DNA of 34,750 nucleotides from a virus (taxonomy: Duplodnaviria > Heunggongvirae > Uroviricota > Caudoviricetes). The notes beneath the pieces were generated by a model. It was not told the origin of the DNA and made no database searches. It saw nothing but the letters and a program-made list of their open reading frames with translations. Shown piece by piece: positions 2,603 through 28,781 of the stretch (positions within the stretch are counted from its first letter, which is position 1; each line of letters starts with the position of its first letter). A program made the position numbers and the translations under genes. The stretch lies in IMG/VR virus record IMGVR_UViG_2875703104_000001, one strand, 5' to 3'.

Positions 2603-3081
2603 TATCCCGCCCCCGTCATATCCGTGAATTTAGTCGCCATACTGCCAGCCTTACCGATGAGCGATTCTGCCTGTTTACCGATATCGCCATAAAGCGCGGC
2701 CAGTGATTCATCAACGCGGGTGAGCGACAGCGTAAAATCAATTTTTCGGGGTGTGCCGTCTGCAAAGAAAATACTCCCTGTTTCACTCACCCTGCTGATG
2801 ACATACATGCCGTAAATCATGCCGGTGCCATCCAGCAACGGCCACGCCCGACCTTCCTCTGCCATCAGTCTGAGCGTGGTCATCGTCAGCTTTCCGCCGG
2901 TCAGTTCGGGATAAAGCACACCGGCAAGCGTGATGTTTTCCTCGCCAACACCGAGAAACTGAAAGGCATCCCGTTTACCGATACGGGAATTTGACGGCCA
3001 GCGATAATCTGATTCACGCTGCATGGTCTGGTGTGGCAGCGTCTGGCGCATAAAAACAAACATACCTAACGCGAGCATCAT
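2602..3081 (-). CDS. U: Tail protein gpU (159 aa)
   Basis: Length and position match P2 gpU; stop/start overlap with D is typical translational coupling. Confidence 0.88.
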   Translation of the reverse strand: MMLALGMFVFMRQTLPHQTMQRESDYRWPSNSRIGKRDAFQFLGVGEENITLAGVLYPELTGGKLTMTTLRLMAEEGRAWPLLDGTGMIYGMYVISRVSETGSIFFADGTPRKIDFTLSLTRVDESLAALYGDIGKQAESLIGKAGSMATKFTDMTGAG

Positions 3082-3095
3082 TTTTCGTCACCTCC

Positions 3096-5543
3096 TTAAC
3101 CGTCATGCATCATGCTGGCACGAGCGCGCGCACGTTTATCCCGCTCGTATTTTTCGAGCGCATCCTGTAACTGGCGGTCAAGCTGTATCCCCGGCGCAGT
3201 ACCACCCGTCAGGCTGATGTGATATTCGTTTTTACTCTGGTCCACATAAGAGCGGCCAGCCGGTGCCGTGACCGGCTGATAAGCCTGATAGCCTGCATAA
3301 GAGCTGGTCGCCGGAATATAACCACCGGTGCCATACGTGGCGGCATGAGTTCTGGCGGCGGTCTGGTCAAGTGTGTCTGACTCTTTGTTGATGACCCCGA
3401 GCTTTTCCAGTACCCAGTCAATACCGCTGCGCAGTTTGTTGAACGCATTAAGCGGCAGCATTAGCGCGTCAGCCAGTGCCTGCCCGAACATGACGCCCGT
3501 GTCACGGCAACGATTCAGGGTGTCCTGGGTGGCTTTAACCGGGGCAATCAGGTTTTTAAACCACTGCCACGCGGCCTGTAATTTTTCGCCCAGCCAGTCA
3601 AACACCGGTTTCAGTGGCGTGAACAGCTCCCCCACCGGCGCAAATGCCGCTTTCAGCCCTTCAACCACACCGCCAAAGAATGCGCTGACAGGCTCCCAGT
3701 ATTTACGGATAAGCAACGCCCCGGCGACAATAGCGGCCACCACAGCCACAACCGGCCAGCTAATCGCCCCGATGGCGGTCATAACAGCACTGCCAACCGT
3801 CGTGAAGATTGCCCCCATTGCGCCTGCTGCCGCGATGATGGCATTAATGCCGGTGATAACCGGCCAGGCTACAAGACCAATTGCACCGATGATGCCAGTA
3901 AGCGCCAGCGCGCCACCGGCAATGAGGCCAATGGTTGACGCCAGTGATTTGTTTTTCTGTATCCAGCCATCGAGTTTTAACACATACTTTGTGGCCGTCT
4001 GCGTGAGCTTACGCAGCGAGCCTTCCTGCTGGTCAAACAGGTCAGTCCCCACCGCCTCATAAGCGGACTGAAACTCTTTAAAGTCACCGCCGAGATTGTC
4101 CTGCATGATATTTACCAGCTCGGCGGTCTTCCCGTCTGAGGCTTTAAACGCAGCGGTCAGTTTGTCCAGCTTTCCAGTTGAGGCGGCAGTCATCAGCACG
4201 GCGGCGGCTGAGCTGGCCTCCTCCCCGAAAATAGTTTTCATGTATTCAGCCTGCTGGGCAGTACCGAGCCGGTTTTTCTCAAAACTGGCCTGCATTTCTT
4301 TCAGAATGGTAAATACTGGTCGAGTATTCCCTTTACTGTCTGAGGTTTTCACGCCAAGCTCTTTGAGTGCATCCCATGCTTTTCCCGTTGGTGCCTGCAG
4401 GCGACTTAACACGGCACGGCTTCCCGTCCCCGCCATTGAGCCTGTAATTTTTGCATCATGCAGCGCCCCGACCATTGCGGCGGTTTCTTCAATGCTGACA
4501 CCAGCATTTTTTGCCACAGGTGCGGCATAGGTCAGCGCATCGCTCATGCCATCAAAATCGGCGGCGGTTTTGTTCATCGTCATGGAGAGAACATCCCCGA
4601 TATGAGCGACCTTATCGTTTGAAAGCTGAAAGGCGGATTTCATCCCCATCAGCAGGGCGGCGTTTTCTTCCATCGTGCGACGGTTCGCCAGCGCCATATT
4701 CAGCGTGACCGGCGTTGCCGCCTGAATGGCATCAACATCCCCACCGGCTTTCGCAATAATAATCTGCGCACCGGCTGCATCATCTGCCGAGGCTGCGGTA
4801 TTGTCGCCGAGCTGGCGCGCCTGCTTGCGTAGTGCAGCCATTTCGGCGGAGTCTTTTGCCACACCGAGCACAGCCTGCAATTCTGAGTTTTTCTGCGCAA
4901 ACTCATAACCGGGCATCAGCAACTTAACTCCGGCCATCGTTCCCGCAGCAGCAATCCCCACACCGGCAGCGCCCACTGAGGCCATATTTCCGGCCAGTTC
5001 CTTTCCGGCCTGATAACGCTGTTTTACTGCGTTAAGTTTTGCCTGTTGTGCACTGACACGCGCCAGCGCGTCACGCTGACGGTTAAGCTGTGCGGTGGTT
5101 TCACTGATACGGTTTTTCAGTCCCTGCTCATCATGTGCAAGATTGCGGGTATTAATTCCCACAGCGGCCAGTTCCCGCTGCTGGCGTTTAATGGAATCTG
5201 TCAGGCGGTTATATTTCGCCTGTAAGTCCTCCGCCGCACGCTTTGCGGATTCCAGCACTTTCGCCTGAGCACGGGTCGGACGTTCAGTGTTTTTAAACTG
5301 TGTGGCAAGGGCTTCGGCTTCCTGCCGTGCCTTTTCAAGTGCATGACCAGTCACGGCAAGCTGTGCGCTGGTCTTGCGAAATCCCTCAATACGGGATGCG
5401 TGACCGTTCAGCTCGCGCAGTGATTTTTGTGTTTCCCGGATATCCCCCGACAGCGACTTACTCGCTGTGCGGATGGATTTAAACGGGCGGGATGCCTGGT
5501 CAACAGCCCTGAGCAATACCTGTAATTTTACATTGTTACTCAT
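3096..5543 (-). CDS. T: Tail tape measure protein gpT (815 aa)
   Basis: Long Ala/Gly-rich coiled-coil protein with a hydrophobic central segment, typical of tape measure proteins; length equals P2 gpT as recalled. Confidence 0.9.
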   Translation of the reverse strand: MSNNVKLQVLLRAVDQASRPFKSIRTASKSLSGDIRETQKSLRELNGHASRIEGFRKTSAQLAVTGHALEKARQEAEALATQFKNTERPTRAQAKVLESAKRAAEDLQAKYNRLTDSIKRQQRELAAVGINTRNLAHDEQGLKNRISETTAQLNRQRDALARVSAQQAKLNAVKQRYQAGKELAGNMASVGAAGVGIAAAGTMAGVKLLMPGYEFAQKNSELQAVLGVAKDSAEMAALRKQARQLGDNTAASADDAAGAQIIIAKAGGDVDAIQAATPVTLNMALANRRTMEENAALLMGMKSAFQLSNDKVAHIGDVLSMTMNKTAADFDGMSDALTYAAPVAKNAGVSIEETAAMVGALHDAKITGSMAGTGSRAVLSRLQAPTGKAWDALKELGVKTSDSKGNTRPVFTILKEMQASFEKNRLGTAQQAEYMKTIFGEEASSAAAVLMTAASTGKLDKLTAAFKASDGKTAELVNIMQDNLGGDFKEFQSAYEAVGTDLFDQQEGSLRKLTQTATKYVLKLDGWIQKNKSLASTIGLIAGGALALTGIIGAIGLVAWPVITGINAIIAAAGAMGAIFTTVGSAVMTAIGAISWPVVAVVAAIVAGALLIRKYWEPVSAFFGGVVEGLKAAFAPVGELFTPLKPVFDWLGEKLQAAWQWFKNLIAPVKATQDTLNRCRDTGVMFGQALADALMLPLNAFNKLRSGIDWVLEKLGVINKESDTLDQTAARTHAATYGTGGYIPATSSYAGYQAYQPVTAPAGRSYVDQSKNEYHISLTGGTAPGIQLDRQLQDALEKYERDKRARARASMMHDG

Positions 5544-6550: not shown

Positions 6551-7741
6551 TTAATTGCTGTTAACCGAGGTGACCAGATTTGCCAGGTATTTATCAGTAA
6601 TACGCTGGCGCAGGGTCAGGTTTTCAAGAGGAGGCACCGGGGTATAGTCGTAGTCGATATACAGTTTTCCGGCCTTGAGGGTTTCCGCATCGTTGGATTC
6701 TTCACTGAACCAGCAGGTCGCATCCACGATATAGCCGTTTGTTTTCAGCTCACGGAATTTGGCATTGATGCCGTCAACGATGTCGCGAATCAGCGTTGCG
6801 GTGATGGGCTTGTCCACCGCCCACATGTGCGCCTCAGCCATCGTGTCGGCCAGCACCTGCGCGGTGCGGGTGTAGTTTTCAAAGAGGAACAGCGGGTCAT
6901 CAGAGCAGGTACGGTTACCCCAGAACCGGAAACCGTCACGGCGAATCAGCGTTGTGACGCCTGACTCGTTAAGCAGGTCAGCATCGGTGCCGGACTCCTG
7001 CAAATCCCAGAATACAGATGCGCTGATGCCGGTAACACCGTTCACCCCGACATTGGACAGCGTTTTATGCCAGCCCTGCTCCTGGTCGATTTTAGCGCGC
7101 AGACCCAGCGCACGGGCGGTGGCATACGCGGTGGCGGTGGTACTGGTGACCGTATCCCATGCGAGGAAATCCGGCCAGATGACCATCAGCTCACGCTGGC
7201 TGAAATTCTGGCGGTAGGCTTTCACCTCGGAAATGGTCTTACAGCCCCATGCGCTGATATATCCGAAAGCGCGCAGCTTCTGACAGACTGATGCCAGTGC
7301 AACAGCCACCTCTTTGGTATCCAGCCCCGGCACACCAAGAATACGCGGTTTAACACCGGTTACCGACTCTGCCGCCAGCAGGGCTTTCAGTCCGGTATAC
7401 TGACCATTTTCGTCGGTGGTGCCGATGATATTGGAAACGGTCTGCGCGAGCTTCGTTTCTTCGTCATCGCCGGTGCCGTCTTCCACGCGCACGACAACGG
7501 TGACCGGTTTTGACTGGTCAGCGATGGCCTGCAACGATGCCGCCAGCGTGCCTTTTTTACCGGCCTTTGCAATTGCACTCTGCACATTGGTAATCAGCAC
7601 CGGTTTATTGAGGGGGAAGGTTTCCGCATCCGCATCGCTGGCCGTGCAGACCATGCCGACAATGGCAGTGGATACGGTGGAAATGACGCGGGTGCCGTCG
7701 TTAATCTCCAGCACCTGCACGCCGTGATGATAGTCACTCAT
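6551..7741 (-). CDS. FI: Contractile tail sheath protein gpFI (396 aa)
   Basis: Length and position match P2 FI; first gene of the FI-FII-E-T-U-D operon. Confidence 0.9.
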   Translation of the reverse strand: MSDYHHGVQVLEINDGTRVISTVSTAIVGMVCTASDADAETFPLNKPVLITNVQSAIAKAGKKGTLAASLQAIADQSKPVTVVVRVEDGTGDDEETKLAQTVSNIIGTTDENGQYTGLKALLAAESVTGVKPRILGVPGLDTKEVAVALASVCQKLRAFGYISAWGCKTISEVKAYRQNFSQRELMVIWPDFLAWDTVTSTTATAYATARALGLRAKIDQEQGWHKTLSNVGVNGVTGISASVFWDLQESGTDADLLNESGVTTLIRRDGFRFWGNRTCSDDPLFLFENYTRTAQVLADTMAEAHMWAVDKPITATLIRDIVDGINAKFRELKTNGYIVDATCWFSEESNDAETLKAGKLYIDYDYTPVPPLENLTLRQRITDKYLANLVTSVNSN

Positions 7742-8222
7742 CCGTTTAACTCCGTGGTTAATGGGTGAGTGGTATTTTCAGTTGTACCCGAGATGTCAGA
7801 CTATTTGTCCCGGTTGGCTAATCGACAGCACAACCACCGGTAAAGAAAAGGCGGGCAATTCGCTCGCCTGTCCTGATTTGTACTCACTTATTTCCCGACT
7901 GACAATTTACATAGCCAAAACGCTATCAAATCTGACAGTCTGCTTTGAGCGAGAAGCAGGCCTTACACTGTAATCAGCATAGAATAGGATGCAGAATCGC
8001 TAAACAAATAGATGTCTGTCAGAGTAGTGGCTTTTAGTGGAAATCTATAGTTGCTATAGCTCAGATAATTAAGTGCCGTCTCTGTCCGCAACTCTAGTCA
8101 GAGTTTATTGCACAGGGGAAATAAATAAGTGCATGTGAATCATTGTCACGAAACAGTAAATATTCGTCATGGGTCATCATATCACTATTTATATGTGTCA
8201 GAGTTGATACCCACCACTGAAA

Positions 8223-9269
8223 TCACTTTCCAAACTTATTAAATTGTTCAGCAATGAAATCAATATACTCATTACCTTGGCCGTTATGCCTGAATTTTTG
8301 CTGCCCTTCGAAATCTAAATTAGGTGAAAAATGAATTATTTGGTTATCTTCATACAGTTTTAAAGGAGAATAAAATGACAATGATTTATCATTCAATAAT
8401 TGACGCACTCCTGTTATAGCACTACCAATCAAAATATCACATAATTGAACTGCCGGGCTTAGTTTTGAATCAACTTGGTGAACATGCTCAAGCTTTAATG
8501 GGAATTTAATACTGGCGATTTCAGACATCTTAAACTCGGCTGGCGTCTGACATTTGATAAGCATCGAAAGATATTCATTGTATTGTAAAAGATTTTTAGA
8601 ACGATCATGCTCAATGCTATACGGTCCCTCTGACATTAATTCAGTGCGTGATATTAGTGCTTGAAGAATAACAAATGCTGCATCAGTAGAAATTTTTGGA
8701 TTAGTTATTGCCGTAATACAATCTGGATGCTCTAAAGCTAGTGGCCCCAGCACTTCCGGTAATAGACGCCAATTCACGGCCCTAACGTTCGCAATAAGGT
8801 TATTTACTGCTGTGTGCGTTTTCTCATGCATCGCATTTTGAAAAGATATTAGGATATTATCAAAATCTCTACCAAAGTAGCTTTGGCAGACATAGTAAGC
8901 CATTGATGCCATAGAAACGTTTCCACCATTTTCGTATAGATTTATCCCATGGTCATAGTAAAAAGGCTCTACCGCATACTCAATAAACATTTGAATTAGA
9001 ATCAAACGTTTATCGGCAACACAAGTAACACATGGAAAATTGGCAAGTAGTTCCTGTTGCAAAGTAAAAATTGGTTTTTGATAACTATCTCGCTTTTTAA
9101 GAGAGCTAAATTTCAATTCAGGGGCTTTGTGTTTAGGAAAATGTTGTCTGATAAGATGAAGAGCATCGTCATGACTAATCTTTACAGCGCTGGCCCCTTG
9201 CCAAGGTTGTGACTTTTGAAGAAGATCTCGCCCAGTGTAACCAGACTCATCAATTGAAAATATACTCAT
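8223..9269 (-). CDS. Cargo protein, DUF3800-like (348 aa), function unknown; candidate defence or moron gene
   Basis: N-terminus MSIFSIDESGYTG resembles the DUF3800 signature (hydrophobic-x-IDESG) and a C-terminal VQLCDILIGSAI resembles the DUF3800 QxADxxA-type motif. Gene is markedly AT-rich and sits at the P2 Z/fun position between FI and G. Confidence 0.6.
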   Translation of the reverse strand: MSIFSIDESGYTGRDLLQKSQPWQGASAVKISHDDALHLIRQHFPKHKAPELKFSSLKKRDSYQKPIFTLQQELLANFPCVTCVADKRLILIQMFIEYAVEPFYYDHGINLYENGGNVSMASMAYYVCQSYFGRDFDNILISFQNAMHEKTHTAVNNLIANVRAVNWRLLPEVLGPLALEHPDCITAITNPKISTDAAFVILQALISRTELMSEGPYSIEHDRSKNLLQYNEYLSMLIKCQTPAEFKMSEIASIKFPLKLEHVHQVDSKLSPAVQLCDILIGSAITGVRQLLNDKSLSFYSPLKLYEDNQIIHFSPNLDFEGQQKFRHNGQGNEYIDFIAEQFNKFGK

Positions 9270-9367
9270 TTATTCTGTGTCCATAGCTGTTGTTTCACCC
9301 AAAATACCTTTTTGGATAGTATTGCGCTATAGCCTTTAACCCTATTAATTGAGATCCATCGATGCAA

Positions 9368-9397
9368 GCAACGTCCGCTCATGGCACAGAGCGGACG
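9368..9397 (+). repeat. 30-bp hairpin-forming element, copy A (GCAACGTCCGCTCATGGCACAGAGCGGACG)
   Basis: Internal perfect 9-bp inverted repeat CGTCCGCTC/GAGCGGACG; about 87% identical to copy B at 11114..11143 in the same orientation. Confidence 0.7.
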
Positions 9398-9414
9398 ATA
9401 TCACTGAGCTGAAG

Positions 9415-9438
9415 GTCCGCTGAGAGCGAGGAGCGGAC
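9415..9438 (+). repeat. Second, shorter hairpin with the same GTCCGCT/AGCGGAC arms
   Basis: GTCCGCT-gagagcgagg-AGCGGAC, read directly, 18 bp downstream of copy A. Confidence 0.6.
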
Positions 9439-9548
9439 GTAGGGAATTGGTCCTTTCCCCCAACGATAACGTGTGTTAATCAGCCGAGAGTGGGTTATGA
9501 AACGCGGTGAATAGTTATGTTCCCAGTATCGCCATATTCCAGCCACTT

Positions 9549-10934
9549 TCAACGCATGCTTTTTGCGGTCTTATCTTGCTCCCAATGTGTGACACCTTCG
9601 ACCCCACGCGTCGAGTCAGATGTAAGCATCAATGGCTGTCTAAGGAAGAGCCCCATCAAATCCGGGACACGGGCAAAGTCTTGAACAGTCTCAGCCCACT
9701 CATAGTTGTCCTCTAATGGGTAATAATTAACGGCATGCAGGAAAGCACCCAACACGGTTGTTTTAGAGGCATCGTAGGCCGAGATATGCTCCATGTTTTT
9801 ATCCCTACGTAGTTCTTCAATATCTATGCCTTCGCAAGTCTCATACCAAATATGCACCACGCCAGCACGATCAGGGGGAATCTGCATGACTCCATCATTG
9901 AGCAAGCTCTTGAAATGCTTGGATCTGAGGCCAAGAGAAATCTCATGATCGCAGCACCACTGAGCTCCAACGCACTTTGCAACATCCTCTACAAAAATGT
10001 TGAGAATATCGTTATTGGTGCCAGGACGAATAACTCTCTGAGCGATAGTCGAGATACTTCGTTTCTCATTGCTATCTAGATCCCCAAATACCAGCAATTC
10101 ATGCTGTGGGCTATTGGCTCTGACTGAAAATTTTCTGTAGTGACGTCTGAGACCTAATTTGTCGATGGCTCGTATTCCCACACTGATTGAACCTTCATTA
10201 GCTTTTCCCGTCCCCCCTTTAATGGCTAGATTCACCGCTTTAATAACGTCTGCCGGAGTCACACTGGCGACCTGCTCATGGAAAATTATATCGACAATGT
10301 TCCATGGTGCGACTTTGAGCATATGTTGGCTCAATTGATGCCAGATGTTGGCCCAGGCTTGCTCTTCTGTCTTTGAGTACTTGGTTTGCTTATCCGACCT
10401 TTTGCACTCGACGTAGAACTCCAGATCACCTAACTTGACGAGCATATCCGGTGATTTTTTGGTCTTTCCATCGGGCCAAACAATGCTGCTTTCTGGGATG
10501 AAGGCAACCTCATAGCCGTTCTTTAGGTAGAACGATGCCGTCAGCAGCTCAAAAATTTGAGTTTCTGGTTTATTGTTATTTGCTAGCATTTTGTCCAGAA
10601 CATCATCGACGTATGGGACTTTGCGAAGCTGGTCTGCAACAGCTCCGATGGCCATAGCATAGGGGTAGATACGTCTGCTGCTGTAAGTAGCATCACTATA
10701 TGGAAAATCATGAGACAGATACGACGCCAGAATGTACCAGTCGATGTCATCTTCTGCTGGTATGAAGAGCTGGGGCTCTATCGGCAGATTGATGTTAAAC
10801 TTAGCCTCCTTCTCTCTTATGCGCTTGAAATATGCAGCTTTGCGAGCAGCCCAGGCCTCAGTTCCAAGCCTATCCACAAGCAACTGATAAAAAGCTTTTG
10901 TTCTTAAACGCTCAACACTACTGACACTATCCAT
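9549..10934 (-). CDS. Cargo protein of unknown function (461 aa) with a possible PD-(D/E)xK nuclease-like motif
   Basis: AT-rich ORF with no recognisable P2 counterpart. The segment SPDMLVKLGDLEFYVECK has PD...E-x-K spacing compatible with a restriction-endonuclease-like core; this is weak, motif-only evidence. Confidence 0.55.
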   Translation of the reverse strand: MDSVSSVERLRTKAFYQLLVDRLGTEAWAARKAAYFKRIREKEAKFNINLPIEPQLFIPAEDDIDWYILASYLSHDFPYSDATYSSRRIYPYAMAIGAVADQLRKVPYVDDVLDKMLANNNKPETQIFELLTASFYLKNGYEVAFIPESSIVWPDGKTKKSPDMLVKLGDLEFYVECKRSDKQTKYSKTEEQAWANIWHQLSQHMLKVAPWNIVDIIFHEQVASVTPADVIKAVNLAIKGGTGKANEGSISVGIRAIDKLGLRRHYRKFSVRANSPQHELLVFGDLDSNEKRSISTIAQRVIRPGTNNDILNIFVEDVAKCVGAQWCCDHEISLGLRSKHFKSLLNDGVMQIPPDRAGVVHIWYETCEGIDIEELRRDKNMEHISAYDASKTTVLGAFLHAVNYYPLEDNYEWAETVQDFARVPDLMGLFLRQPLMLTSDSTRGVEGVTHWEQDKTAKSMR

Positions 10935-11113
10935 TGCGGTCTCTCTTGGTTGTTGTATAGAGTCTTTAGCGATATATGTGATTTCAACTTATTGGAGGTA
11001 TTATCCTTCAGAAATCAAAGTTTGCTACCACAAAGAAATAGAAACTCTTTATTGCATCCTGTGTAAGTATCTATCCAAGCGGACCATTAGTTTTTTTAGA
11101 TATCTGACGTCCC

Positions 11114-11143
11114 GCAACGTCCGCTTCTGGCACATAGCGGACT
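11114..11143 (+). repeat. 30-bp hairpin-forming element, copy B (GCAACGTCCGCTTCTGGCACATAGCGGACT)
   Basis: 26/30 identical to copy A; the two copies bracket the 461-aa gene. Confidence 0.7.
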
Positions 11144-11206
11144 GTCAGATTAGGCTTTACTCTGTGCCATAGATATGTAAGCTCACACCAGAGATCATAC
11201 AACTTA

Positions 11207-11731
11207 TTACGGCATTTCCGGCCATTCGGGATTTGCAGGATCCACACGACTGACCAGAACGCTGTAGCGTTCCCATGCTTCCAGTCGGCCGCGTTCCTCA
11301 TCTGTTGCCATATTCAGCCTGACAGCGCGTTCCAGTGGCTGAATGATAGTTTCAGCTTCGGAAAGCAAAGCTGCCTTCTGTAATTCCGCCAGTTGCTCCT
11401 GTTCATCTGCCGTATAAATCCGCTTAATCACAGCACCATCCTTAAACATCCATTTACCTGAGTCATCAGCACGTCGGTTGGAGGTAATATCAGGAACCTC
11501 GACAACGCTGAAACCTTCAGGGTTAAGCGTTGAAGCATCTCTGGTGATGGCGACAATAATATTATTCTCGTCGTAAACAATTTTTATTGTGTCTGGCTGA
11601 AAATTACTTACTTCCTCATACCAGTTTTTTCCGTCTTCGGACCATAACCAGATAACATCAAAATTCTTTGTTAGCTGATATTGTTCTTTTGTTTTTGGAT
11701 TACCTGACTTAATGTTTTCTAAATGCTGCAT
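11207..11731 (-). CDS. G: Tail fibre assembly protein gpG (174 aa)
   Basis: C-terminal region ...[39 protein letters not shown] is the conserved Tfa/gpG-type tail fibre assembly motif; located immediately downstream of H. Confidence 0.85.
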
Positions 11732-11734
11732 AAT

Positions 11735-14544
11735 TTACACCTGCGCAACGTTATACCATGTGCCATTGATGTATTTTTGTATTGGTCTGAATACTGCTGG
11801 GTCATCACCATCGACTTCACCGACAATACCAAGCCCCGTGATTACATGGCCTGATTTTTCATACATCACGCCTTTTTGCATGGTCTGAACAACACGTGTG
11901 CCAAGTCTGACATCTCTCACATAGCGGGAATCAAAGTTACCGTAATCCGAGGGATTAACACTCCCCGTAATATTTATGGTTTTATTACTTTGAATACTTC
12001 CCGAGACAAAGCGCATAACATGGACGCTATTAGCATAAACATCCAGATTACCATCACCATTTTGTTTAAAGCCCGTGTCATTATCACCCAAAACAATCGA
12101 ATTACCGCCAAGAGCACTGGATGTTCCTATACCCAGAGCACCATTCAATTGACCACCAGATAACGGCAGGGCACCGACATCTCCCGCTGTAGGTTTTCGC
12201 GTTGTGGTATAAAACTCAGACCAGTCAGCCTCGAATCCGTAACCGTCACGAGCAGAACGATAAAAAATACCGCCGTTCTTATAATTAACGCGGAACTGGG
12301 CGGCGGGACAACTTCCTTCACCGATATTAAAATGAAGAATTAACGTTGATGCACCACCAATAGTTGCGTTATAGGCTCCGCTACTCCAGTTCCATCCAAC
12401 GGCTTTATCATTCGCAACGGTGTCTCCTGTTTTTCCTGAAGCAAATGCACCAATATTTTTCGGCGTCAGGTTAATATCTGATGTTCCATCAAACGAAACG
12501 TTATTAATTTTATTCCTGAAGCAAATGCACCAATATTTTTCGGCGTCAGGTTAATATCTGATGTTCCATCAAACGAAACGTTATTAATTTTACGGGCTGT
12601 TTTCAGCTTTGTTGCTGTCGCCGCATTGCCGGACAGTTCACCAGAAAGGCCAGCACTGAATGTCTGTTTCGCGCCCCATGTATGGGCTTCGTCAATGATT
12701 GGTACTCGTCTTGTTGTGATCGTGCGGCTTCCCGGATTTCCTGAAATACGCACCATAAAAAAGCGGTAGTTGGCTTTACTTACAGTGCTGCGCCATACAT
12801 GCATTGAGCGCCCCGAACCAGAATCATCACTCGGACCGACTGAGATGTTTATCAGGTTGCCATCAATGACGCCCCAGTCCATACCGTCGGGAATATTGGT
12901 CATGTTATCCAGCCGAACGGTTATCAGACTGCCCGGCACAAAATTGTATGTCTGCCAGTCCAGGCTGGTGAGTTTTGCCACTGCGCCACCGATACCCAAC
13001 TCTAACGGCAAAGAGTTTGAGTTATAAATCTGTCGCCACTCCCCCCACGCGTTAAATGAGCCACCAAGAAACACTCGCTCATATAAACGGTCTTTTGTAG
13101 CTGCGCTGGTTCCTGTGGTCGTGTAACGTTGCAAAACATAGACACCATCCTTGCGCCTGATGACTTCCAGAAAACCAGACTGCCCCTGGATTGGGGTGTG
13201 GGTCGCTTTGCCTGTCACACTGTAAATACCCGGAGACATCAAATCATCCAGGTCATCCTCATAGAAGGTACTACTGGTCTGATAACCAATTTGGATCCAG
13301 TCTTCCCACTGTGGATTTTCTGCATCCCATTTGGCTGTCAGGCCGCGAATATACATAGTCCCGTTACGGGTTGTATAACGCTGCGTGCGTCCATATAGCC
13401 CACCTTCGAAAATTTCCAGAATGCCCTGCGCGTCTCCTCCCTGCTCAGGGTAATGTCGTTCAAAAGAAGCTATTGCTGAACTGCTGTTTCTCCATAGACC
13501 TAAATGTTCTGCGCCACCGAGAGAGTTAAGGTCAATGGTCGTACTTAGAGCACGCGTTACAGCCTGAACATGGCGCCATGCTCCCCATGGTCCATCATTA
13601 CCATTCCATGTTCCAATGAGTTTGCGGGTATACAAATTTCCGTCACGTGTGGTATAGCGTTGCGTGCCTGCAAAATTGCCGCCAGCAAAAACCTCAAGCA
13701 CACCGACAGCATTATCTTCCGGGAAGTTTTTCTCCAGTGTTGCGTTGGTGGATGTTGCTTTAGACCAGATACCTGAATAAGCCTTAACAGGACCAAACGT
13801 ATTCAGATCAGCATTAAGCGGCATTTCGCCATTGTTTTTCATAAACGTCAGGCTGGTAACGCCAACATTGTCCAGAAAAGCGCCCTTATCTGGAATATCG
13901 CCACCGTTCTGGTCTTTCTGCAGACGTTTCTCAGCATTGTCATAGGCTGCTTTTACTGCCTTTGGCGTTGCCGCCAGCTTTTCACTGGTGCTGTTTGTTG
14001 CACTGCTTAACTGAGTAAAACCTTTTTCTGTCAGCGTGGCGTCAGGATGGCGGCGGGACTGCTCATGCTCTGCGATTTTGTCATCGACGTAATCCTGCGT
14101 CGCCATCACTGTGCTGGCATCAATAGTCAGCTCAACAGACGCCACGTTACTGATAATAATAACCATGCGGCAGGTCTGCGCACGTCCGGAGCCTTCAGCC
14201 AGTTCTGGTTTATAGCTTTCTGCCATGTTGGATACCGCAATCAGTGTTCCGGCATCGTCATACAGACCAAGCTCACGCATCCAGAAGCCGCCCACTTCGG
14301 GCGGTACAACCAGTTCAGCCACGATATAGTTTTTATTCTTATTATCCACGCTGACTTTATTCAGAGCGTGACGCCAGACCTCATGCACCAGTTTCGTCTG
14401 ACCGGCATCCGGCACCGGCAATTTGCCATTACCGTCACCCACGGCCATTGCAGACAGGTTTACTTTTTTCCCGCCGGGGACAGTGGCGGCAGCCAGCTTT
14501 GCGGCTCCGGCAGTAGTGATAACGGTTTTAAATTTCGTGCTCAT
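11735..14544 (-). pseudogene. H: Tail fibre gene H, frame-disrupted by an 80-bp tandem duplication (N-terminal ORF 12466..14544; C-terminal open frame 11735..12465)
   Basis: N-terminus MSTKFKTVITTAGAAKLAAATVPGG... matches P2 gpH. The ORF stops 47 nt into the first repeat copy with an aberrant ...GIKLITFRLMEHQILT tail. The other frame is open from 12465 to 11735 and encodes the expected continuation (...KNIGAFASGKTGDTVANDKAVGWNWSSGAYNA...). Deleting one 80-bp copy gives a single 909-codon ORF. Confidence 0.85.
12433..12592. repeat. Perfect 80-bp tandem direct duplication (12433..12512 = 12513..12592) inside gene H
   Basis: Read directly: both copies are TTCCTGAAGCAAATGCACCAATATTTTTCGGCGTCAGGTTAATATCTGATGTTCCATCAAACGAAACGTTATTAATTTTA. 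80 is not a multiple of 3. Confidence 0.95.
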
Positions 14545-23416: not shown

Positions 23417-25189
23417 ATGACCATCACCACAGACACCACTCTTTTACACGACCCGCGTCGTCAGGCGGCGCTGCTGTACTGGCAGGGGTTTTCCGTGCCG
23501 CAGATTGCCGCCATGTTGCAGATGAAACGCCCGACGGTGCAGAGCTGGAAACAGCGCGACGGCTGGGACAGCGTTGCCCCCATCAGCCGTGTCGAAATGA
23601 GTCTGGAAGCGCGGCTGACCCAGCTCATCATCAAACCGCAGAAAACCGGCGGTGACTTCAAGGAAATTGACCTGCTGGGACGCCAGATTGAACGACTGGC
23701 ACGGGTAAACCGTTACAGTCAGACCGGCAACGAGGCAGACCTTAATCCGAACGTCGCTAACCGCAACAAAGGCGGGCGTCGCAAACCGAAAAAGAATTTT
23801 TTCAGTGACGAGGCCATCGAAAAGCTGGAGCAGATTTTCTTTGAGCAGTCTTTCGACTATCAGTTGCACTGGTATCGCGCCGGGCTTGAGCACCGCATCC
23901 GCGATATCCTGAAATCCCGCCAGATTGGCGCGACGTTTTATTTTTCCCGCGAGGCGCTGCTGCGCGCCCTGAAAACCGGTCATAACCAGATTTTTCTGTC
24001 GGCCAGTAAAACGCAGGCGTATGTGTTCCGTGAATACATCATCGCCTTTGCCCGGCTGGTTGACGTTGACCTGACCGGTGACCCGATTGTCCTGGGCAAT
24101 AACGGCGCAAAACTGATTTTTCTCGGCACCAACTCCAACACCGCACAGAGCCATAACGGCGACCTGTACGTCGATGAGATTTTCTGGATCCCGAATTTTC
24201 AGGTACTGCGTAAGGTGGCATCAGGTATGGCCTCACAGAGTCACCTGCGCTCGACCTATTTCTCCACCCCGTCCACGCTGGCGCACGACGCCTACCCGTT
24301 CTGGTCGGGTGAACTGTTCAACCGGGGACGCGCCAGCGCCGCCGAACGCGTGGAAATCGACGTCAGTCATAACGCCCTTGCCGGTGGGCTTCTCTGTGCG
24401 GACGGCCAGTGGCGGCAGATTGTCACCATTGAGGACGCCCTGAAAGGTGGCTGCACGCTGTTCGACATTGAGCAGCTCAAACGTGAAAACAGCGCCGACG
24501 ATTTTAAAAACCTGTTCATGTGTGAATTTGTTGACGACAAGGCGTCGGTGTTCCCGTTCGAGGAGCTGCAACGCTGCATGGTCGACACGCTGGAAGAATG
24601 GGAAGACTATGCGCCGTTTGCCGCCAATCCGTTCGGCTCCCGCCCGGTATGGATTGGTTACGACCCGTCACACCGTGGCGACAGCGCCGGATGCGTGGTG
24701 CTGGCACCGCCGGTGGTGGCCGGTGGCAAATTCAGAATACTTGAGCGTCACCAGTGGAAAGGCATGGACTTTGCCACCCAGGCGGAATCCATCCGCAAAC
24801 TCACCGAAAAATATAACGTTGAATACATCGGGATTGATGCCACCGGCCTCGGTGTCGGCGTGTTCCAGCTCGTGCGCTCGTTCTATCCCGCCGCGCGCGA
24901 TATCCGCTACACGCCGGAAATGAAAACCGCAATGGTGCTCAAGGCAAAAGACGTTATCCGCCGTGGCTGTCTGGAATATGACGTCAGCGCCACCGACATC
25001 ACCAGCTCGTTTATGGCTATCCGCAAGACCATGACCAGCAGCGGACGCAGCGCCACCTATGAGGCCAGCCGCAGCGAGGAAGCCAGCCACGCCGACCTCG
25101 CCTGGGCGACCATGCACGCCCTGTTAAATGAGCCACTCACCGCCGGTATCAGCACCCCGCTGACATCCACCATTCTGGAGTTTTACTGA
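23417..25189 (+). CDS. P: Terminase ATPase (large) subunit gpP (590 aa)
   Basis: MTITTDTTLLHDPRRQAALLYWQGFSVPQIAAMLQMKRPTVQSW matches P2 gpP as recalled; the ORF-track start at 23387 adds 10 codons. Confidence 0.9.
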   Translation: MTITTDTTLLHDPRRQAALLYWQGFSVPQIAAMLQMKRPTVQSWKQRDGWDSVAPISRVEMSLEARLTQLIIKPQKTGGDFKEIDLLGRQIERLARVNRYSQTGNEADLNPNVANRNKGGRRKPKKNFFSDEAIEKLEQIFFEQSFDYQLHWYRAGLEHRIRDILKSRQIGATFYFSREALLRALKTGHNQIFLSASKTQAYVFREYIIAFARLVDVDLTGDPIVLGNNGAKLIFLGTNSNTAQSHNGDLYVDEIFWIPNFQVLRKVASGMASQSHLRSTYFSTPSTLAHDAYPFWSGELFNRGRASAAERVEIDVSHNALAGGLLCADGQWRQIVTIEDALKGGCTLFDIEQLKRENSADDFKNLFMCEFVDDKASVFPFEELQRCMVDTLEEWEDYAPFAANPFGSRPVWIGYDPSHRGDSAGCVVLAPPVVAGGKFRILERHQWKGMDFATQAESIRKLTEKYNVEYIGIDATGLGVGVFQLVRSFYPAARDIRYTPEMKTAMVLKAKDVIRRGCLEYDVSATDITSSFMAIRKTMTSSGRSATYEASRSEEASHADLAWATMHALLNEPLTAGISTPLTSTILEFY

Positions 25190-26223
25190 TGAGCAAGAAA
25201 AAAGGGAAAACACCGCGACCAGCGGCAAAAACAATGACCGCCAGCGCCCCGAAAATGGAGGCATTCACCTTTGGTGAGCCGGTGCCGGTACTCGACCGCC
25301 GTGACATTCTGGATTACGTCGAGTGCATCAGTAACGGCAGATGGTATGAGCCACCGGTCAGCTTTACCGGTCTGGCAAAAAGCCTGCGTGCTGCCGTACA
25401 TCACAGCTCGCCAATTTACGTCAAACGCAATATTCTGGCCTCGACATTTATCCCGCACCCGTGGCTTTCCCAGCAGGATTTCAGCCGTTTTGTGCTGGAT
25501 TTTCTGGTGTTCGGTAATGCGTTTCTGGAAAAGCGTTACAGCACCACCGGTAAGGTCATCAGACTGGAAACCTCACCGGCCAAATATACCCGTCGTGGCG
25601 TGGAGGAGGATGTTTACTGGTGGGTGCCGTCCTTCAACGAGCCGACAGCCTTCGCGCCCGGCTCCGTGTTTCACCTGCTGGAGCCGGATATTAATCAGGA
25701 GCTGTACGGCCTGCCGGAATATCTCAGCGCCCTTAACTCTGCCTGGCTGAATGAATCGGCCACGCTGTTCCGCCGCAAGTATTACGAAAACGGCGCACAT
25801 GCCGGATACATCATGTACGTCACCGATGCCGTGCAGGATCGCAACGATATCGAAATGCTTCGCGAAAACATGGTTAAGTCGAAAGGCCGCAATAACTTTA
25901 AAAATCTGTTTCTCTATGCCCCTCAGGGGAAAGCCGACGGCATTAAAATTATCCCCCTCAGTGAAGTGGCAACGAAGGACGATTTTTTTAATATCAAAAA
26001 ATCCAGCGCCGCTGACCTGCTGGACGCGCACCGCATCCCCTTTCAGTTGATGGGCGGCAAGCCGGAGAACGTCGGGTCGCTGGGTGATATTGAGAAAGTG
26101 GCAAAGGTCTTTGTCCGCAATGAGCTTATCCCGTTACAGGACAGGATTCGGGAAATAAACGGCTGGCTCGGTCAGGAGGTCATCCGCTTTAAAAACTACT
26201 CACTGGACACTGACAACGGCTGA
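25189..26223 (+). CDS. Q: Portal protein gpQ (344 aa)
   Basis: Length and synteny match P2 gpQ; start overlaps the P stop. Confidence 0.9.
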   Translation: MSKKKGKTPRPAAKTMTASAPKMEAFTFGEPVPVLDRRDILDYVECISNGRWYEPPVSFTGLAKSLRAAVHHSSPIYVKRNILASTFIPHPWLSQQDFSRFVLDFLVFGNAFLEKRYSTTGKVIRLETSPAKYTRRGVEEDVYWWVPSFNEPTAFAPGSVFHLLEPDINQELYGLPEYLSALNSAWLNESATLFRRKYYENGAHAGYIMYVTDAVQDRNDIEMLRENMVKSKGRNNFKNLFLYAPQGKADGIKIIPLSEVATKDDFFNIKKSSAADLLDAHRIPFQLMGGKPENVGSLGDIEKVAKVFVRNELIPLQDRIREINGWLGQEVIRFKNYSLDTDNG

Positions 26224-26576: not shown

Positions 26577-28220
26577 TTAAGATCTACATTCAACTAAAAG
26601 GTACACTAATGGACGTTCTGGCGTCCCATTCTTCTTTGCAACAAAAGCAGATATTTTGTGTTTTGCTATTTTTTGCTTGAGTTTTTTACATAACACTTTG
26701 TTTATATAACCAAGTTTCCCGCTCTCATGAACAACAGCTATAGCATGTGGATCAACCGGGTTATCCTCTTCAGGAACAAGCTTGACCAAATCACCGACCA
26801 TTACTTTCGACAAATCAAGCCCTTCCTGATAACGAGTTCCTGCCACTTCAAAAAGAAGCTCACCTTCACTATTAAGAATTTCTGGATCTGGCACCAAACA
26901 AAAACCATCGCCAGGTGATTTTGCTCCTGTATATCCTAACAGCGCAAAATCAGAGCCTTCAAATGGATGGGGGAGCAAATGTTGAGCCAGATACTCAGCA
27001 AAGTCTTTTCTTTTCCGTGGTGGTAAACGCCGAACAAACGGGTCAAGCACGTTGTTCGTATGTTCTTCACTTTTCAGACTAAATGCGGGATGTCCTGCAA
27101 ACCCTTTCTCTTGGGCTTTAGCATAATCTTCTGACTGAAAATGGTATGTGAAGACGTAGTTATCCCCTTGCTGACGATCAATCTGACCAACAACATAACG
27201 AGTACCGCCTGTGGGTGGCTGCCATGTAAGAAGCAACCGAGTAGGCTCCATTATTCTGTTTATAGTACGCATATTTAGAATCAGTGATAACCTTAGGTAT
27301 CTACGCCTCAATAAACGAATCGTCCAATCCGCTCGTTCCCTAGTGAACGGCACATCGGAGCTAATTTCGCAAAGTGAATCTATCTTGTCGACCAGTTCCT
27401 GAAAATCAAATTCAAGTCTCCGGGCCAAGTACGCTTTTGACTGCTCATCAAGAGCCAAATCCTGTATAGAAGAAATATGACCTAATCGTTCATGCGTGTC
27501 TGCCCGATTCTTCCGCAAATGATGACAACCACGCTGTATGTATTCATCTACATTTTGATGGTTCCATCCTCTGATCCTCTCTACATACCTTTCATGCCCC
27601 AAACTAGTACCATTATCGAAATATGGTGCGAGATATCCCTTCACTTTAGGTGGCGTTATGCCTGGTGCAGATTCAGGTACAAAAACAAAACCCCAATTCT
27701 CTTGGTGTCTATCACTATTACCGATGAGCGCATCAAAAAGCAGCATATCGTAAAGCCATTGGATCCAGTCTGGAGAGATCAGGCCGCGGATACTAAAAGC
27801 CCTACAAATTAAGCGTAGATCAACAAGGTTATGGTGTCTTCCGGAAGAGTCATCAAAATCCGATATCAACACATGAAAAAAATCAGACGCATGAACAAAT
27901 AACTGGCTACTTTGATCGTAAAACCACTCAAGCAAAGCTCCATATTCGTATTCACCGTTCTCCATCATTCTTCGCGCTGGCAATGCTTTAGGAACAGGAA
28001 CGCCCATAACATCTCCAACTATATAAGCAACGGTTTCCATCCAGTACTGATCGGGATAAGCATCTCTTGAGAGTTTAAAAAGATAAGGCCATTCCGGTTT
28101 TATCCCCTCAGGAGCATCATTCGGTGACCAAAGCATTTTTTTATCCCTCGCTCCTCGAGGAAAAATGCCATGCTCATCATCTTTACGCCAACTAGTTACA
28201 TCTATTAAATTGATATCCAT
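26577..28220 (-). CDS. HipA-like Ser/Thr kinase domain protein with C-terminal HIRAN-like domain (547 aa); candidate defence or toxin effector
   Basis: LFDALIGNSDRHQENWGFVF fits the HipA-family catalytic loop (GNxDxHxxN) and LAPYFDNGTSLG the downstream HipA motif. C-terminus LFEVAGTRYQEG...LVPEEDNPVDPHAIAVVHESGKLGYINK fits the HIRAN signature. Gene is AT-rich and sits between cos and A. Confidence 0.65.
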   Translation of the reverse strand: MDINLIDVTSWRKDDEHGIFPRGARDKKMLWSPNDAPEGIKPEWPYLFKLSRDAYPDQYWMETVAYIVGDVMGVPVPKALPARRMMENGEYEYGALLEWFYDQSSQLFVHASDFFHVLISDFDDSSGRHHNLVDLRLICRAFSIRGLISPDWIQWLYDMLLFDALIGNSDRHQENWGFVFVPESAPGITPPKVKGYLAPYFDNGTSLGHERYVERIRGWNHQNVDEYIQRGCHHLRKNRADTHERLGHISSIQDLALDEQSKAYLARRLEFDFQELVDKIDSLCEISSDVPFTRERADWTIRLLRRRYLRLSLILNMRTINRIMEPTRLLLTWQPPTGGTRYVVGQIDRQQGDNYVFTYHFQSEDYAKAQEKGFAGHPAFSLKSEEHTNNVLDPFVRRLPPRKRKDFAEYLAQHLLPHPFEGSDFALLGYTGAKSPGDGFCLVPDPEILNSEGELLFEVAGTRYQEGLDLSKVMVGDLVKLVPEEDNPVDPHAIAVVHESGKLGYINKVLCKKLKQKIAKHKISAFVAKKNGTPERPLVYLLVECRS

Positions 28221-28229
28221 ATCTTACGG

Positions 28230-28781
28230 TTACCCAGCTAATGCACGGAAAGCAGCACTAACATAAGCTACCTGAAACTTTGCATCTCGAAGCGCATGAT
28301 GCGCATCAGTAACATTAATGGAAAAATTTGCCCTTACATCAATATTCTTAAGGCTTTTAGCTAGTTCAACGATGGTACGCACGTCTCGATCATTTCGAAA
28401 ACGCCATGGGATATTTTGCGCATGTTTACGGTAAACCGCTGCCAATATAGCGTTATCAAAGCTTGCCCCATTCCCCCAAACTTGTACGTCATCGTTACTA
28501 CGACTTCGTACAAATAGAGAAAATTCTTGTAAGGCTTCATGTAAGTCAACAGCAGACGGGTCATTAAAAACCGCCCTTGCAGAATCGCTTTGTATCATCC
28601 ACCACTGTAAAGTTTTTGGGTCTACAAAACTATTTTCCAATGCAGATGATAGGGTTATAACTCTATAAAACTCATCCCCACACTTGCCAGTCAGAGGCTC
28701 AAAGAACACAGCGCCGATTGAAATCAAAGGAGCATCCATTGACACACCTAATGTTTCTATATCGAGCATTAAATTATTCAT
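28230..28781 (-). CDS. DEDDh-family (DnaQ/RNase T-like) 3'-5' exonuclease (183 aa)
   Basis: Exo I motif LDIETLG (D-x-E), central FDNAIL aspartate and C-terminal AHHALRDA (H-x4-D). GGAGG ribosome-binding site 4 nt before the ATG; 9-nt gap to the kinase gene suggests one operon. Confidence 0.7.
   Translation of the reverse strand: MNNLMLDIETLGVSMDAPLISIGAVFFEPLTGKCGDEFYRVITLSSALENSFVDPKTLQWWMIQSDSARAVFNDPSAVDLHEALQEFSLFVRSRSNDDVQVWGNGASFDNAILAAVYRKHAQNIPWRFRNDRDVRTIVELAKSLKNIDVRANFSINVTDAHHALRDAKFQVAYVSAAFRALAG

Follow-up and report, generated by a model that had tools for sequence, protein, structure and literature searches.

A short palindromic site bounding the cargo cassettes of P2-like phages, genomic islands, plasmids and conjugative elements

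The G/FI cargo hotspot and its palindromes

The DNA analysed (IMG/VR record IMGVR_UViG_2875703104_000001; 34,750 nt, referred to as a whole as the window) is a P2-like (Peduovirus) E. coli prophage in reverse orientation. Its region 7700-12500, with 100% identity to Escherichia phage 899, Yersinia phage GMG73 and prophages of 36 complete E. coli genomes, contains four short palindromes, with arms of the type GTCCGCT/AGCGGAC, that are the subject of this study. Gene order and the identity to Escherichia phage 899 place all four within a P2-like cargo hotspot, the variable G/FI or 'Z/fun' locus between the tail-fibre assembly gene G and the sheath gene FI, the flanks of which were kept in 118 phage records. 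Comparison of this locus with others indicates that exchangeable cassettes, whether in P2-like phages, genomic islands, plasmids or conjugative elements, have their ends marked by a palindromic site of ~36 nt. Two site types, A and B, are distinguished, and on the minus strand, which is the direction of gene G, the order is G, A, the 461-aa gene, B, 18 nt, A, the gene for a 348-aa DUF3800 protein, B, a terminator-like hairpin and FI. The G+C content of the cargo DNA was 41.8% against 51.5% for the whole window. The features of the locus are:

11207-11731, minus strand: gpG tail-fibre assembly gene (Pfam Caudo_TAP), left backbone boundary
11143-11154: conserved outer flank of the G-proximal A site, CCTAATCTGACA
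11119-11142, minus strand: type A site, G-proximal, terminal; GTCCGCT ATGTGCCAGA AGCGGAC on the minus strand
11114-11118: inner GTTGC of the G-proximal A site
9439-11118: 461-aa cassette, the DNA between its sites
9549-10934, minus strand: cargo gene 1, 461 aa; weak AHJR-like nuclease match only
9415-9438, minus strand: type B site, internal, closing the 461-aa cassette; GTCCGCT CCTCGCTCTC AGCGGAC on the minus strand
9397-9414, minus strand: 18-nt spacer of the B-18-A junction; CTTCAGCTCAGTGATATC on the minus strand
9373-9396, minus strand: type A site, internal, opening the DUF3800 cassette; GTCCGCT CTGTGCCATG AGCGGAC, then GTTGC
8223-9269, minus strand: cargo gene 2, 348 aa, DUF3800 family
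7938-7961, minus strand: type B site, FI-proximal, terminal; GCCTGCT TCTCGCTCAA AGCAGAC, 6/7 arm pairs
7937 down to ~7899: conserved outer flank of the FI-proximal B site, TGTCAGATTTGATAGCG...TGTCAG
7842-7868, minus strand: intrinsic-terminator-like hairpin and T-run, GGCGAGCgaattGCCCGCC TTTTCTTT, located past the B site and ahead of the FI promoter region
6551-7741, minus strand: gpFI tail sheath gene (Pfam Phage_sheath), right backbone boundary

The 461-aa gene has sites 185 nt upstream and 111 nt downstream. The DUF3800 cassette was found in 36 E. coli genomes, each time alongside the 461-aa cassette, and PADLOC gave no confident defence assignment for either cargo protein of the window. 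In one E. coli genome carrying the same prophage, the 461-aa gene is interrupted by an IS3-family insertion sequence (IS) element (L262, 3023-5721).

Structure of the sites

A first-pass annotation of the window, made from its letters alone, had described two near-identical 30-mers bracketing the 461-aa gene. Both were exact, 9368-9397 reading GCAACGTCCGCTCATGGCACAGAGCGGACG and 11114-11143 reading GCAACGTCCGCTTCTGGCACATAGCGGACT; they lie in the same orientation and match at 26/30 positions (~87%), and the GTCCGCT/AGCGGAC arms form perfect 7-bp stems around a 10-nt loop in both and at 9415-9438. The pattern GTCCGCT-N10-AGCGGAC occurred three times in the window compared with 0.01 expected, and 0/100 shuffled sequences reached three. 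The third hairpin, at 9415-9438, had been taken for a shorter version of the other two; it is real, but it is an inverted partner, here type B, and not a weaker or shorter copy. The three hairpins were all present, although the count was incomplete, as a fourth, slightly imperfect copy lies at 7938-7961. A relaxed scan of the 34.7 kb returned exactly four family members (7938-61, 9373-96, 9415-38 and 11119-42), all in the hotspot and in the plus-strand order B, A, B, A. Their loops assign 9373-96 and 11119-42 to type A, so that the two near-identical 30-mers both hold A sites. These do bracket the 461-aa gene, but the G-proximal one is the general left boundary of the hotspot in P2-like phages and is not specific to that gene. 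The loop of the internal B site matches the class of the FI-proximal B site, the 18-nt spacer resembles the backbone flank that follows terminal B sites, and the 9373-9438 pair constitutes a conserved inter-cassette junction of 66 nt.

The loops read CTGTGCCARR in type A and YYTCGCTCAA in type B. Read towards the interior of a cassette, A and B are seen to be the same ~36-nt element present in inverted copies, CTGACA GTCYGCT YTG(T/A)GC(C/G)ARR AGCRGAC RTT, sharing CTGACA, both arms and 7/10 loop bases. The consensus of 183 distinct sites has 9-bp arms, GTCYGCTYT/RRAGCRGAC, around a 6-nt centre that is GTGCCA in type A and GAGCGA in type B, and these inverted arms with a centre of 6-8 bp are the geometry of a tyrosine-recombinase core-type site. 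Across the 183 sites the cargo-side arms and an adjoining RTT/AAY triplet (GTT or ATT in 55-60%) are kept despite unrelated cargo, and the non-pairing loop bases are also conserved. A palindrome with conserved non-pairing bases is what dimeric DNA-binding proteins recognize, and the sites might on that account be operators through which a phage or host regulator silences or insulates cargo. We consider this very improbable, given that they occur in unrelated replicons with no common regulator and at both cassette ends irrespective of gene orientation, often distant from start codons. The site has no apparent likeness to the gix/hix/cix invertase sites, to dif or to the P2 att core.

Several minor features were seen around and beyond the sites. 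Outside the G-proximal A site, 11160-11168 (CTCTGTGCC) is complementary to the A loop region 11129-11137 (GGCACATAG) at 8/9 positions in the window and at 9/9 in most phages; the upstream copy of phage P24C9 has two transitions that would retain G-U pairs in RNA, and a comparable arrangement, CAGGGCTG...CAGCCCTG, lies ahead of the recombinase-proximal site described below. The upstream segment could provide alternative pairing or be an accessory element. Inside the same A site, 11101-11118 reads GTTGCGGGAC GTCAGAT, resembling a second, degenerate inner arm with a copy of the outer flank TGTCAGAT, and an extended inverted repeat ATCTGAC...GTCAGAT surrounds the site. In the tape-measure gene, 4045-4068 (GTCCGCTTATGAGGCGGTGGGGAC) comes within two mismatches of the site; all relatives keep it as part of the coding sequence, and it appears to be a chance resemblance and not a family member. 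Finally, open reading frames (ORFs) of 547 and 183 aa (26577-28781, minus strand) adjoin a 344-aa ORF (25189-26223) that we take from its size to be the portal gene, and may be cargo of a second P2 hotspot at the tin/old position; there is no A or B site there, so this second hotspot does not use these sites.

Terminator, repeat and RNA-structure tests

None of the four sites is followed by a T-run on either strand, as the first-pass annotation had stated for the two 30-mers, and a terminator scan was blank at these positions, so that they were rejected as intrinsic terminators. The scan instead returned a terminator at 7868-7854, within the hairpin and T-run of 7842-7868, which from its match to the consensus is likely to be a real terminator for transcription from G and the cargo.

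Identity as a repetitive extragenic palindromic (REP) sequence or bacterial interspersed mosaic element (BIME), against which the annotation had wished its cassette idea to be checked, was likewise rejected. The sites share with these repeats a short GC-rich imperfect palindrome, an intergenic position and, in the B-18 nt-A arrangement, inverted pairs with a short linker; they differ in having no GTAG tetranucleotide and in occurring only at cassette boundaries. REPs number hundreds per genome. The 79-nt composite 9366-9444 was found in 1,116/5,426 E. coli genomes (785 of them with at least 80% of it covered), always in unannotated intergenic DNA, and the B-18-A junction is present at only 1-3 places per genome and is therefore not a REP-type repeat. 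Among one genome each of 185,579 species, the flanked site pattern occurred in 26 stretches, mostly from Enterobacterales, with Idiomarina in addition, and with none in the representative genome of E. coli. In environmental assemblies, those of Woeseiaceae and Pseudomonas among them (L212, L216, L221, L225), ordinary chromosomal genes are separated by hairpins with the same arms (GTCCGCT/GACCGCT...AGCGGAC/AGCGGTC), often followed by RTT and with up to six in 8 kb. These show a T-A to A-T double change at pair 2, may be those genomes' own repeats and were left out of the family.

No Rfam family was matched, permissive thresholds included. As RNA, the B-18-A composite is predicted to form one imperfect hairpin of 70 nt (-35.8 kcal/mol, z -5.3; z -3.8 to -5.3 overall), whereas a hairpin taken singly is no more stable than its shuffled versions (z about -1). 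A function in RNA, with the hairpins as 3' stabilisers, processing sites or weak factor-dependent terminators of late and cargo transcripts and their boundary position as a consequence of this, would accord with the stability of the composite, with the position of the sites in transcribed intergenic DNA downstream of G and the cargo genes, and with the loop-complementary backbone segment, one variant of which retains G-U wobbles. It is nevertheless quite improbable. No site has a U-run, a canonical terminator lies further downstream, the variable stem pair shows no covariation, the sites are inverted at both cassette ends while cargo ORFs run either way between them, and neither the boundaries of shared cassettes nor the recombinase half-site, both described below, would be explained.

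The sites as hotspot boundaries in P2-like phages

A survey was made of 95 distinct P2-like hotspots in which both backbone flanks were present, representing 52 cargo types. The sites occupy fixed backbone positions, with an A site after G in 92/95 hotspots and a B site, ~216 nt upstream of the FI start codon, in 83/95. The element is therefore found in nearly all related P2-like hotspots, and the first-pass annotation's worry that it might be absent from related cargo can be set aside. Internal sites were seen in 18/95 hotspots and the B-A composite in 7/95. Relative to the sites, 52 cargo ORFs were sense and 37 antisense, and no hotspot among the 95 was shorter than ~0.9 kb.

Cassette boundaries in related prophages coincide with the element, a comparison that the annotation had itself proposed. 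In phages L-413C, P24C9, 720R8 and YpM_22, conservation extends from G through the A hairpin and divergence begins immediately beyond it; in P2 only the left arm is kept, with the break after CTGTG. Compared with 80 IMG/VR relatives, none of which shares the window cargo, the backbone homology of the window stops at 11113-11131, a limit seen with ~50 other phages, and restarts at 7950-7966. Where the same backbone tag is joined to different cargo, positions 1-12 of the A site are constant and 13-24 vary with the cargo, and in the B site it is positions 1-9 that change with the cargo, 10-24 going with the backbone. In two pairs of hotspots (L047/L054 and L035/L077) the same cargo is terminal in one phage and internal in another, and the cargo-side arm moves with it together with the adjacent loop bases. 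Such switch points within the loop, seen in natural variants, suggest that strand exchange would take place in the central region of the site.

With non-phage loci included and terminal compared with internal copies, 24/73 homology breakpoints fell within 10 nt of a site, compared with 1.2 +/- 1.1 for random positions. A stricter version of this test left nine ends, none at a site, and was uninformative.

Arrays of several cassettes, with up to seven sites, were also seen in IMG/VR records that are not P2-like (L184, 7966-11607; L111; L199). They lie downstream of a distant tail-fibre assembly gene (33-35% identical), and the array of L111, which is inverted relative to that gene, contains a 461-aa ORF.

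The same cassettes outside phages

E. coli TW14425 and NCTC9038 carry the 461-aa cassette in an IS-rich island, at 99.3% identity across 1,746 nt; A and B are still at its ends there, and the outer flanks have diverged. Another cassette, of 1,024 nt with A and B as its exact limits, is shared at 99.7% identity by a P2 hotspot (L017) and an IncF plasmid. Between the islands of E. coli Nissle 1917 (L236) and strain AF51 (L238), identity is 99.7% as far as an A site, the latter corresponding to the former plus ~3.2 kb, or two cassettes, with a duplicated A site at the bounds of the addition. In all three comparisons homology stops at the sites. Cassettes neighbouring those described encode the known or candidate defence proteins HEC-08, PD-T7-1, PDC-S31 and Hachiman.

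The presence of the same cassettes in unrelated replicons would also be expected if A and B were the terminal inverted repeats of non-autonomous transposons resembling miniature inverted-repeat transposable elements, mobilised in trans by a transposase and targeted to the DNA that follows tail-fibre assembly genes. A and B do form a genuine inverted repeat of ~33-36 nt including CTGACA, and an array may face either way with respect to the tail-fibre assembly gene beside it, as L111 shows. We nonetheless judge this explanation improbable, because no target-site duplication was seen at the P2 (CCTAAT / ATTTGA), island or plasmid boundaries, homology switches within the repeat and not at its outer end, and no transposase recurs beside the arrays; the protein that does recur is a tyrosine recombinase.

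A small tyrosine recombinase associated with the arrays

This candidate recombinase, a protein of 200 aa with Pfam Phage_integrase as its sole domain, is encoded within the arrays of three E. coli islands, with a degenerate B site on one side of it and a degenerate A site on the other. It aligns to the HxxR...H...Y region of XerD; no curated NCBIfam family fits it, and against the XerA/integron-integrase model it scored 58 bits where the cut-off is 220. It was found in the P2 hotspots L047, L102, L117 and L197 and in partial form in L208 and L200; in L047 and its relatives it is cargo, 92.6% identical. Its best 120 homologues are 76-96% identical and come from many gammaproteobacterial genera, represented by E. 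coli, Sodalis, Providencia, Proteus, Pantoea, Pectobacterium, Erwinia, Idiomarina, Pseudoalteromonas, Cycloclasticus and others. The gene is present in 773-928 of 5,426 E. coli genomes and on 444 plasmids, the latter figure counting more distant relatives from Beta- and Alphaproteobacteria. Its contexts include an ssrA island in Providencia, the mutS-rpoS region in Proteus, the chromosome of Idiomarina, an integrative and conjugative element (ICE) in which arsenic and copper modules lie on either side of it, and the hotspot beside traF in an SXT/R391-type ICE.

After the recombinase stop codon, 12/13 distinct contexts have CAGGGCTG-N5-CAGCC CTGTGCCA with minor variants. This is a half-site, and different cargo joins it directly after GTGCCA; beyond it come NN-AGCRGAC-RTT and differing cargo, even where the recombinase is identical (L236/L238, L244/L245, L255/L257). 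An integrase-proximal fixed joining site thus exists in these related loci, although not in the window. Full A or B sites lie at most 10 kb away in nearly all the recombinase contexts examined.

Three further observations concern this protein and its relatives. A perfect 12-bp inverted repeat, ACTCAAATCTCC-N8-GGAGATTTGAGT (L236, 7729-7765), spans the ribosome-binding region and ends at the recombinase start codon; the same repeat is found in L237, L047, L258 and L264, is kept with variants in the Providencia and Proteus copies, and may control recombinase expression. On the Phaeobacter inhibens plasmid pP30_b (L265), a 5.5-kb metabolic module lies between two inverted copies of a distant homologue (~57%; 2860-3492 and 8956-9588), each followed by a GC-rich hairpin and then ...CGGACC. 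A Providencia chromosome (L243, 16832-20077) carries three tandem tyrosine recombinase genes, resembling a 'recombinase in trio', a few kb from the small recombinase and in the same ssrA-linked island.

Proposed mechanism

The original observation of paired hairpins is real, and its interpretation as cassette boundaries is supported by the comparisons above and much extended by them. Among the options offered by the first-pass annotation, recombination sites marking a gene cassette is the one that the comparative evidence favours, and the hairpins are probably site-specific recombination sites of an integron-like cassette system. More tentatively, we propose that this system is a previously unrecognised one made up of the 200-aa recombinase, an attI-like site at the end of its gene and A/B sites of ~36 nt, that the hairpins of the window are used in trans, and that cargo is shuttled among types of element. 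As part of the same tentative proposal, the cargo would comprise anti-phage, metal-resistance and metabolic genes, and the system would extend over P2-like hotspots, SXT/R391-type and other ICEs, IncF and other plasmids, and islands in Gammaproteobacteria. The proposal builds on the observed site family, its boundary positions, the shared cassettes, the in-loop switch point and the co-occurrence of sites and recombinase; the last two of these suggest that it is this recombinase that cuts and joins at these sites.

In such a mechanism, a cassette would consist of A, cargo and B, with A and B inverted, and arrays would be cassettes linked by B-18 nt-A. A cassette circle with one B-18-A junction could integrate through A x A or B x B recombination, strands being exchanged within the loop, and paired exchanges at A and B would swap cassettes among phages, islands, plasmids and ICEs. 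The attI-like half-site next to the recombinase gene would capture cassettes at a fixed point. As the window has no recombinase gene, the enzyme would here act in trans, or the sites would be relics of past events.

A number of results weigh against this reading. The window encodes no member of the 200-aa recombinase family, most arrays have no recombinase in cis, and the recombinase could be just another cargo gene with an ordinary cassette boundary downstream of it. No excised circle was seen, and exact-protein look-ups of both cargo proteins gave only the same prophage, with no contig that was a circular cassette. An empty site, consisting of one full palindrome, was not found in IMG/VR, and the centres of A and B differ, which leaves the simple excision of a single cassette unexplained. 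Two thirds of the homology breakpoints lie away from sites. At the sole polymorphic stem pair the two positions vary independently, giving no support for a folded substrate of the attC type; this absence of covariation fits recognition as double-stranded DNA. Lastly, the identical stretches of 24-45 nt could support homologous exchange of the Red/RecET type.

This last point underlies a serious rival, homologous recombination with the sites serving as short homology arms. The palindromes would then be boundary 'linkers', and cassettes would move without a dedicated enzyme, by the action of host RecA or of Red/RecET-type recombinases of co-resident prophages. The sites with their conserved flanks do offer 24-45 nt of near identity on either side of a cassette, the hotspot backbone is itself highly recombinogenic, the recombinase is missing in cis from most arrays, and a duplicated A site around inserted cassettes is equally expected from a single crossover with a circle. 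We regard this explanation as unlikely all the same, since it does not account for the inner arm and RTT on unrelated cargo, for the conserved non-pairing loop bases of the 183 sites and the switch within the loop, or for a conserved recombinase with its own half-site in the arrays. Moreover, unrelated mobile genetic elements lack the flanking homology that is needed (PMC13586616); the sites could supply it, which would still leave their own origin unexplained.

Phage and satellite hotspots now rank among the main places from which new anti-phage systems are drawn, and the route by which their cargo is swapped, chiefly with unrelated elements, has been left open. A short site at cassette ends, common to phages, islands, plasmids and ICEs, together with a small recombinase, would be a concrete and testable mechanism. 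Searches for the site would delimit cassettes, and hence candidate defence genes, in any genome, and the pair of recombinase and site could serve as a compact recombination tool.

Relation to known systems

The Z/fun (G/FI) locus of P2-like phages is known for exchangeable and often anti-phage cargo (PMC9122126, PMC13586616), and neither of these studies (Rousset et al., 2022; NAR 2026) mentions a hairpin, palindrome or inverted repeat. The second, covering thousands of P2 and P4 elements, leaves the route of exchange with other mobile elements unresolved, finds transposition, homologous recombination and illegitimate recombination to be unsatisfying options, and notes many 'cryptic genomic islands of unknown mobility' with P2-type defences (PMC13586616). 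Our keyword searches returned no description of these sites, a paper of 2004 by Nilsson et al. being outside their reach. By its title that paper reportedly deals with P2 cargo exchange by site-specific recombination, and part of the boundary structure may already be in print there.

The arrays resemble integrons in several respects. Hairpin-forming imperfect palindromes of ~60-70 nt stand between cassettes that mostly hold a single gene, there is a tyrosine recombinase with a proximal site that different cassettes adjoin at a single exact position, the enzyme is missing in cis from many arrays (compare clusters of attC sites lacking integrases, CALIN), the cargo is rich in anti-phage genes, and GTT/AAC is preferred at cassette edges. 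They differ in that the window has no IntI-type gene and the associated recombinase is of 200 aa, consisting of the catalytic domain only. In place of complementary RYYYAAC/GTTRRRY boxes there is only an AAY...RTT preference, at 55-60% of sites, and CCCTAC and GTTGCT, which flank the composite of the window, lack complementarity. An integron cassette has one attC; a cassette here carries an inverted pair, A and B, and each junction holds two sites. ORFs lie in both orientations, and the arrays are located in phage and ICE hotspots, plasmids and islands and not in an integron platform. With no IntI, no R-box pairing, two inverted sites per cassette and genes in both orientations, the system does not qualify as an integron.

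The pdif modules of Acinetobacter plasmids are bounded by dif-like 28-mers that bind XerC/XerD, with adjacent modules sharing one site. The cassettes described here are like them in lying between inverse short recombinase sites, in being shuffled among replicons and in having no recombinase inside, and differ in a site sequence unrelated to dif, in two sites with an 18-nt spacer between cassettes, and in the dedicated small recombinase. In the literature that we covered, pdif modules are named in passing (PMC9771954).

The closest description found is that of Tn6212, a 'XerC tyrosine-recombinase transposon' in the cargo regions of Pseudomonas syringae ICEs (PMC3583860, PMC10945833). In blocks of this type a tyrosine recombinase gene comes first; the blocks are 'flanked by short palindromic sequences' and stand either by themselves or in tandem with clusters for heavy metals 'surrounded by the same repeats' (PMC3583860, PMC10945833). 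The likeness is one of description, and its XerC and the 200-aa recombinase are set side by side only in that sense. The published boundary of Tn6212 is a 14-bp direct repeat, AAATACGTTATCAC, unlike GTCCGCT..AGCGGAC, and a link to phage hotspots is not described. An ICE that has a DUF3150/CobT/RadC/primase backbone, and that we take to be of that type, carries the small recombinase studied here, with an arsenic module on one side of it and a copper module on the other.

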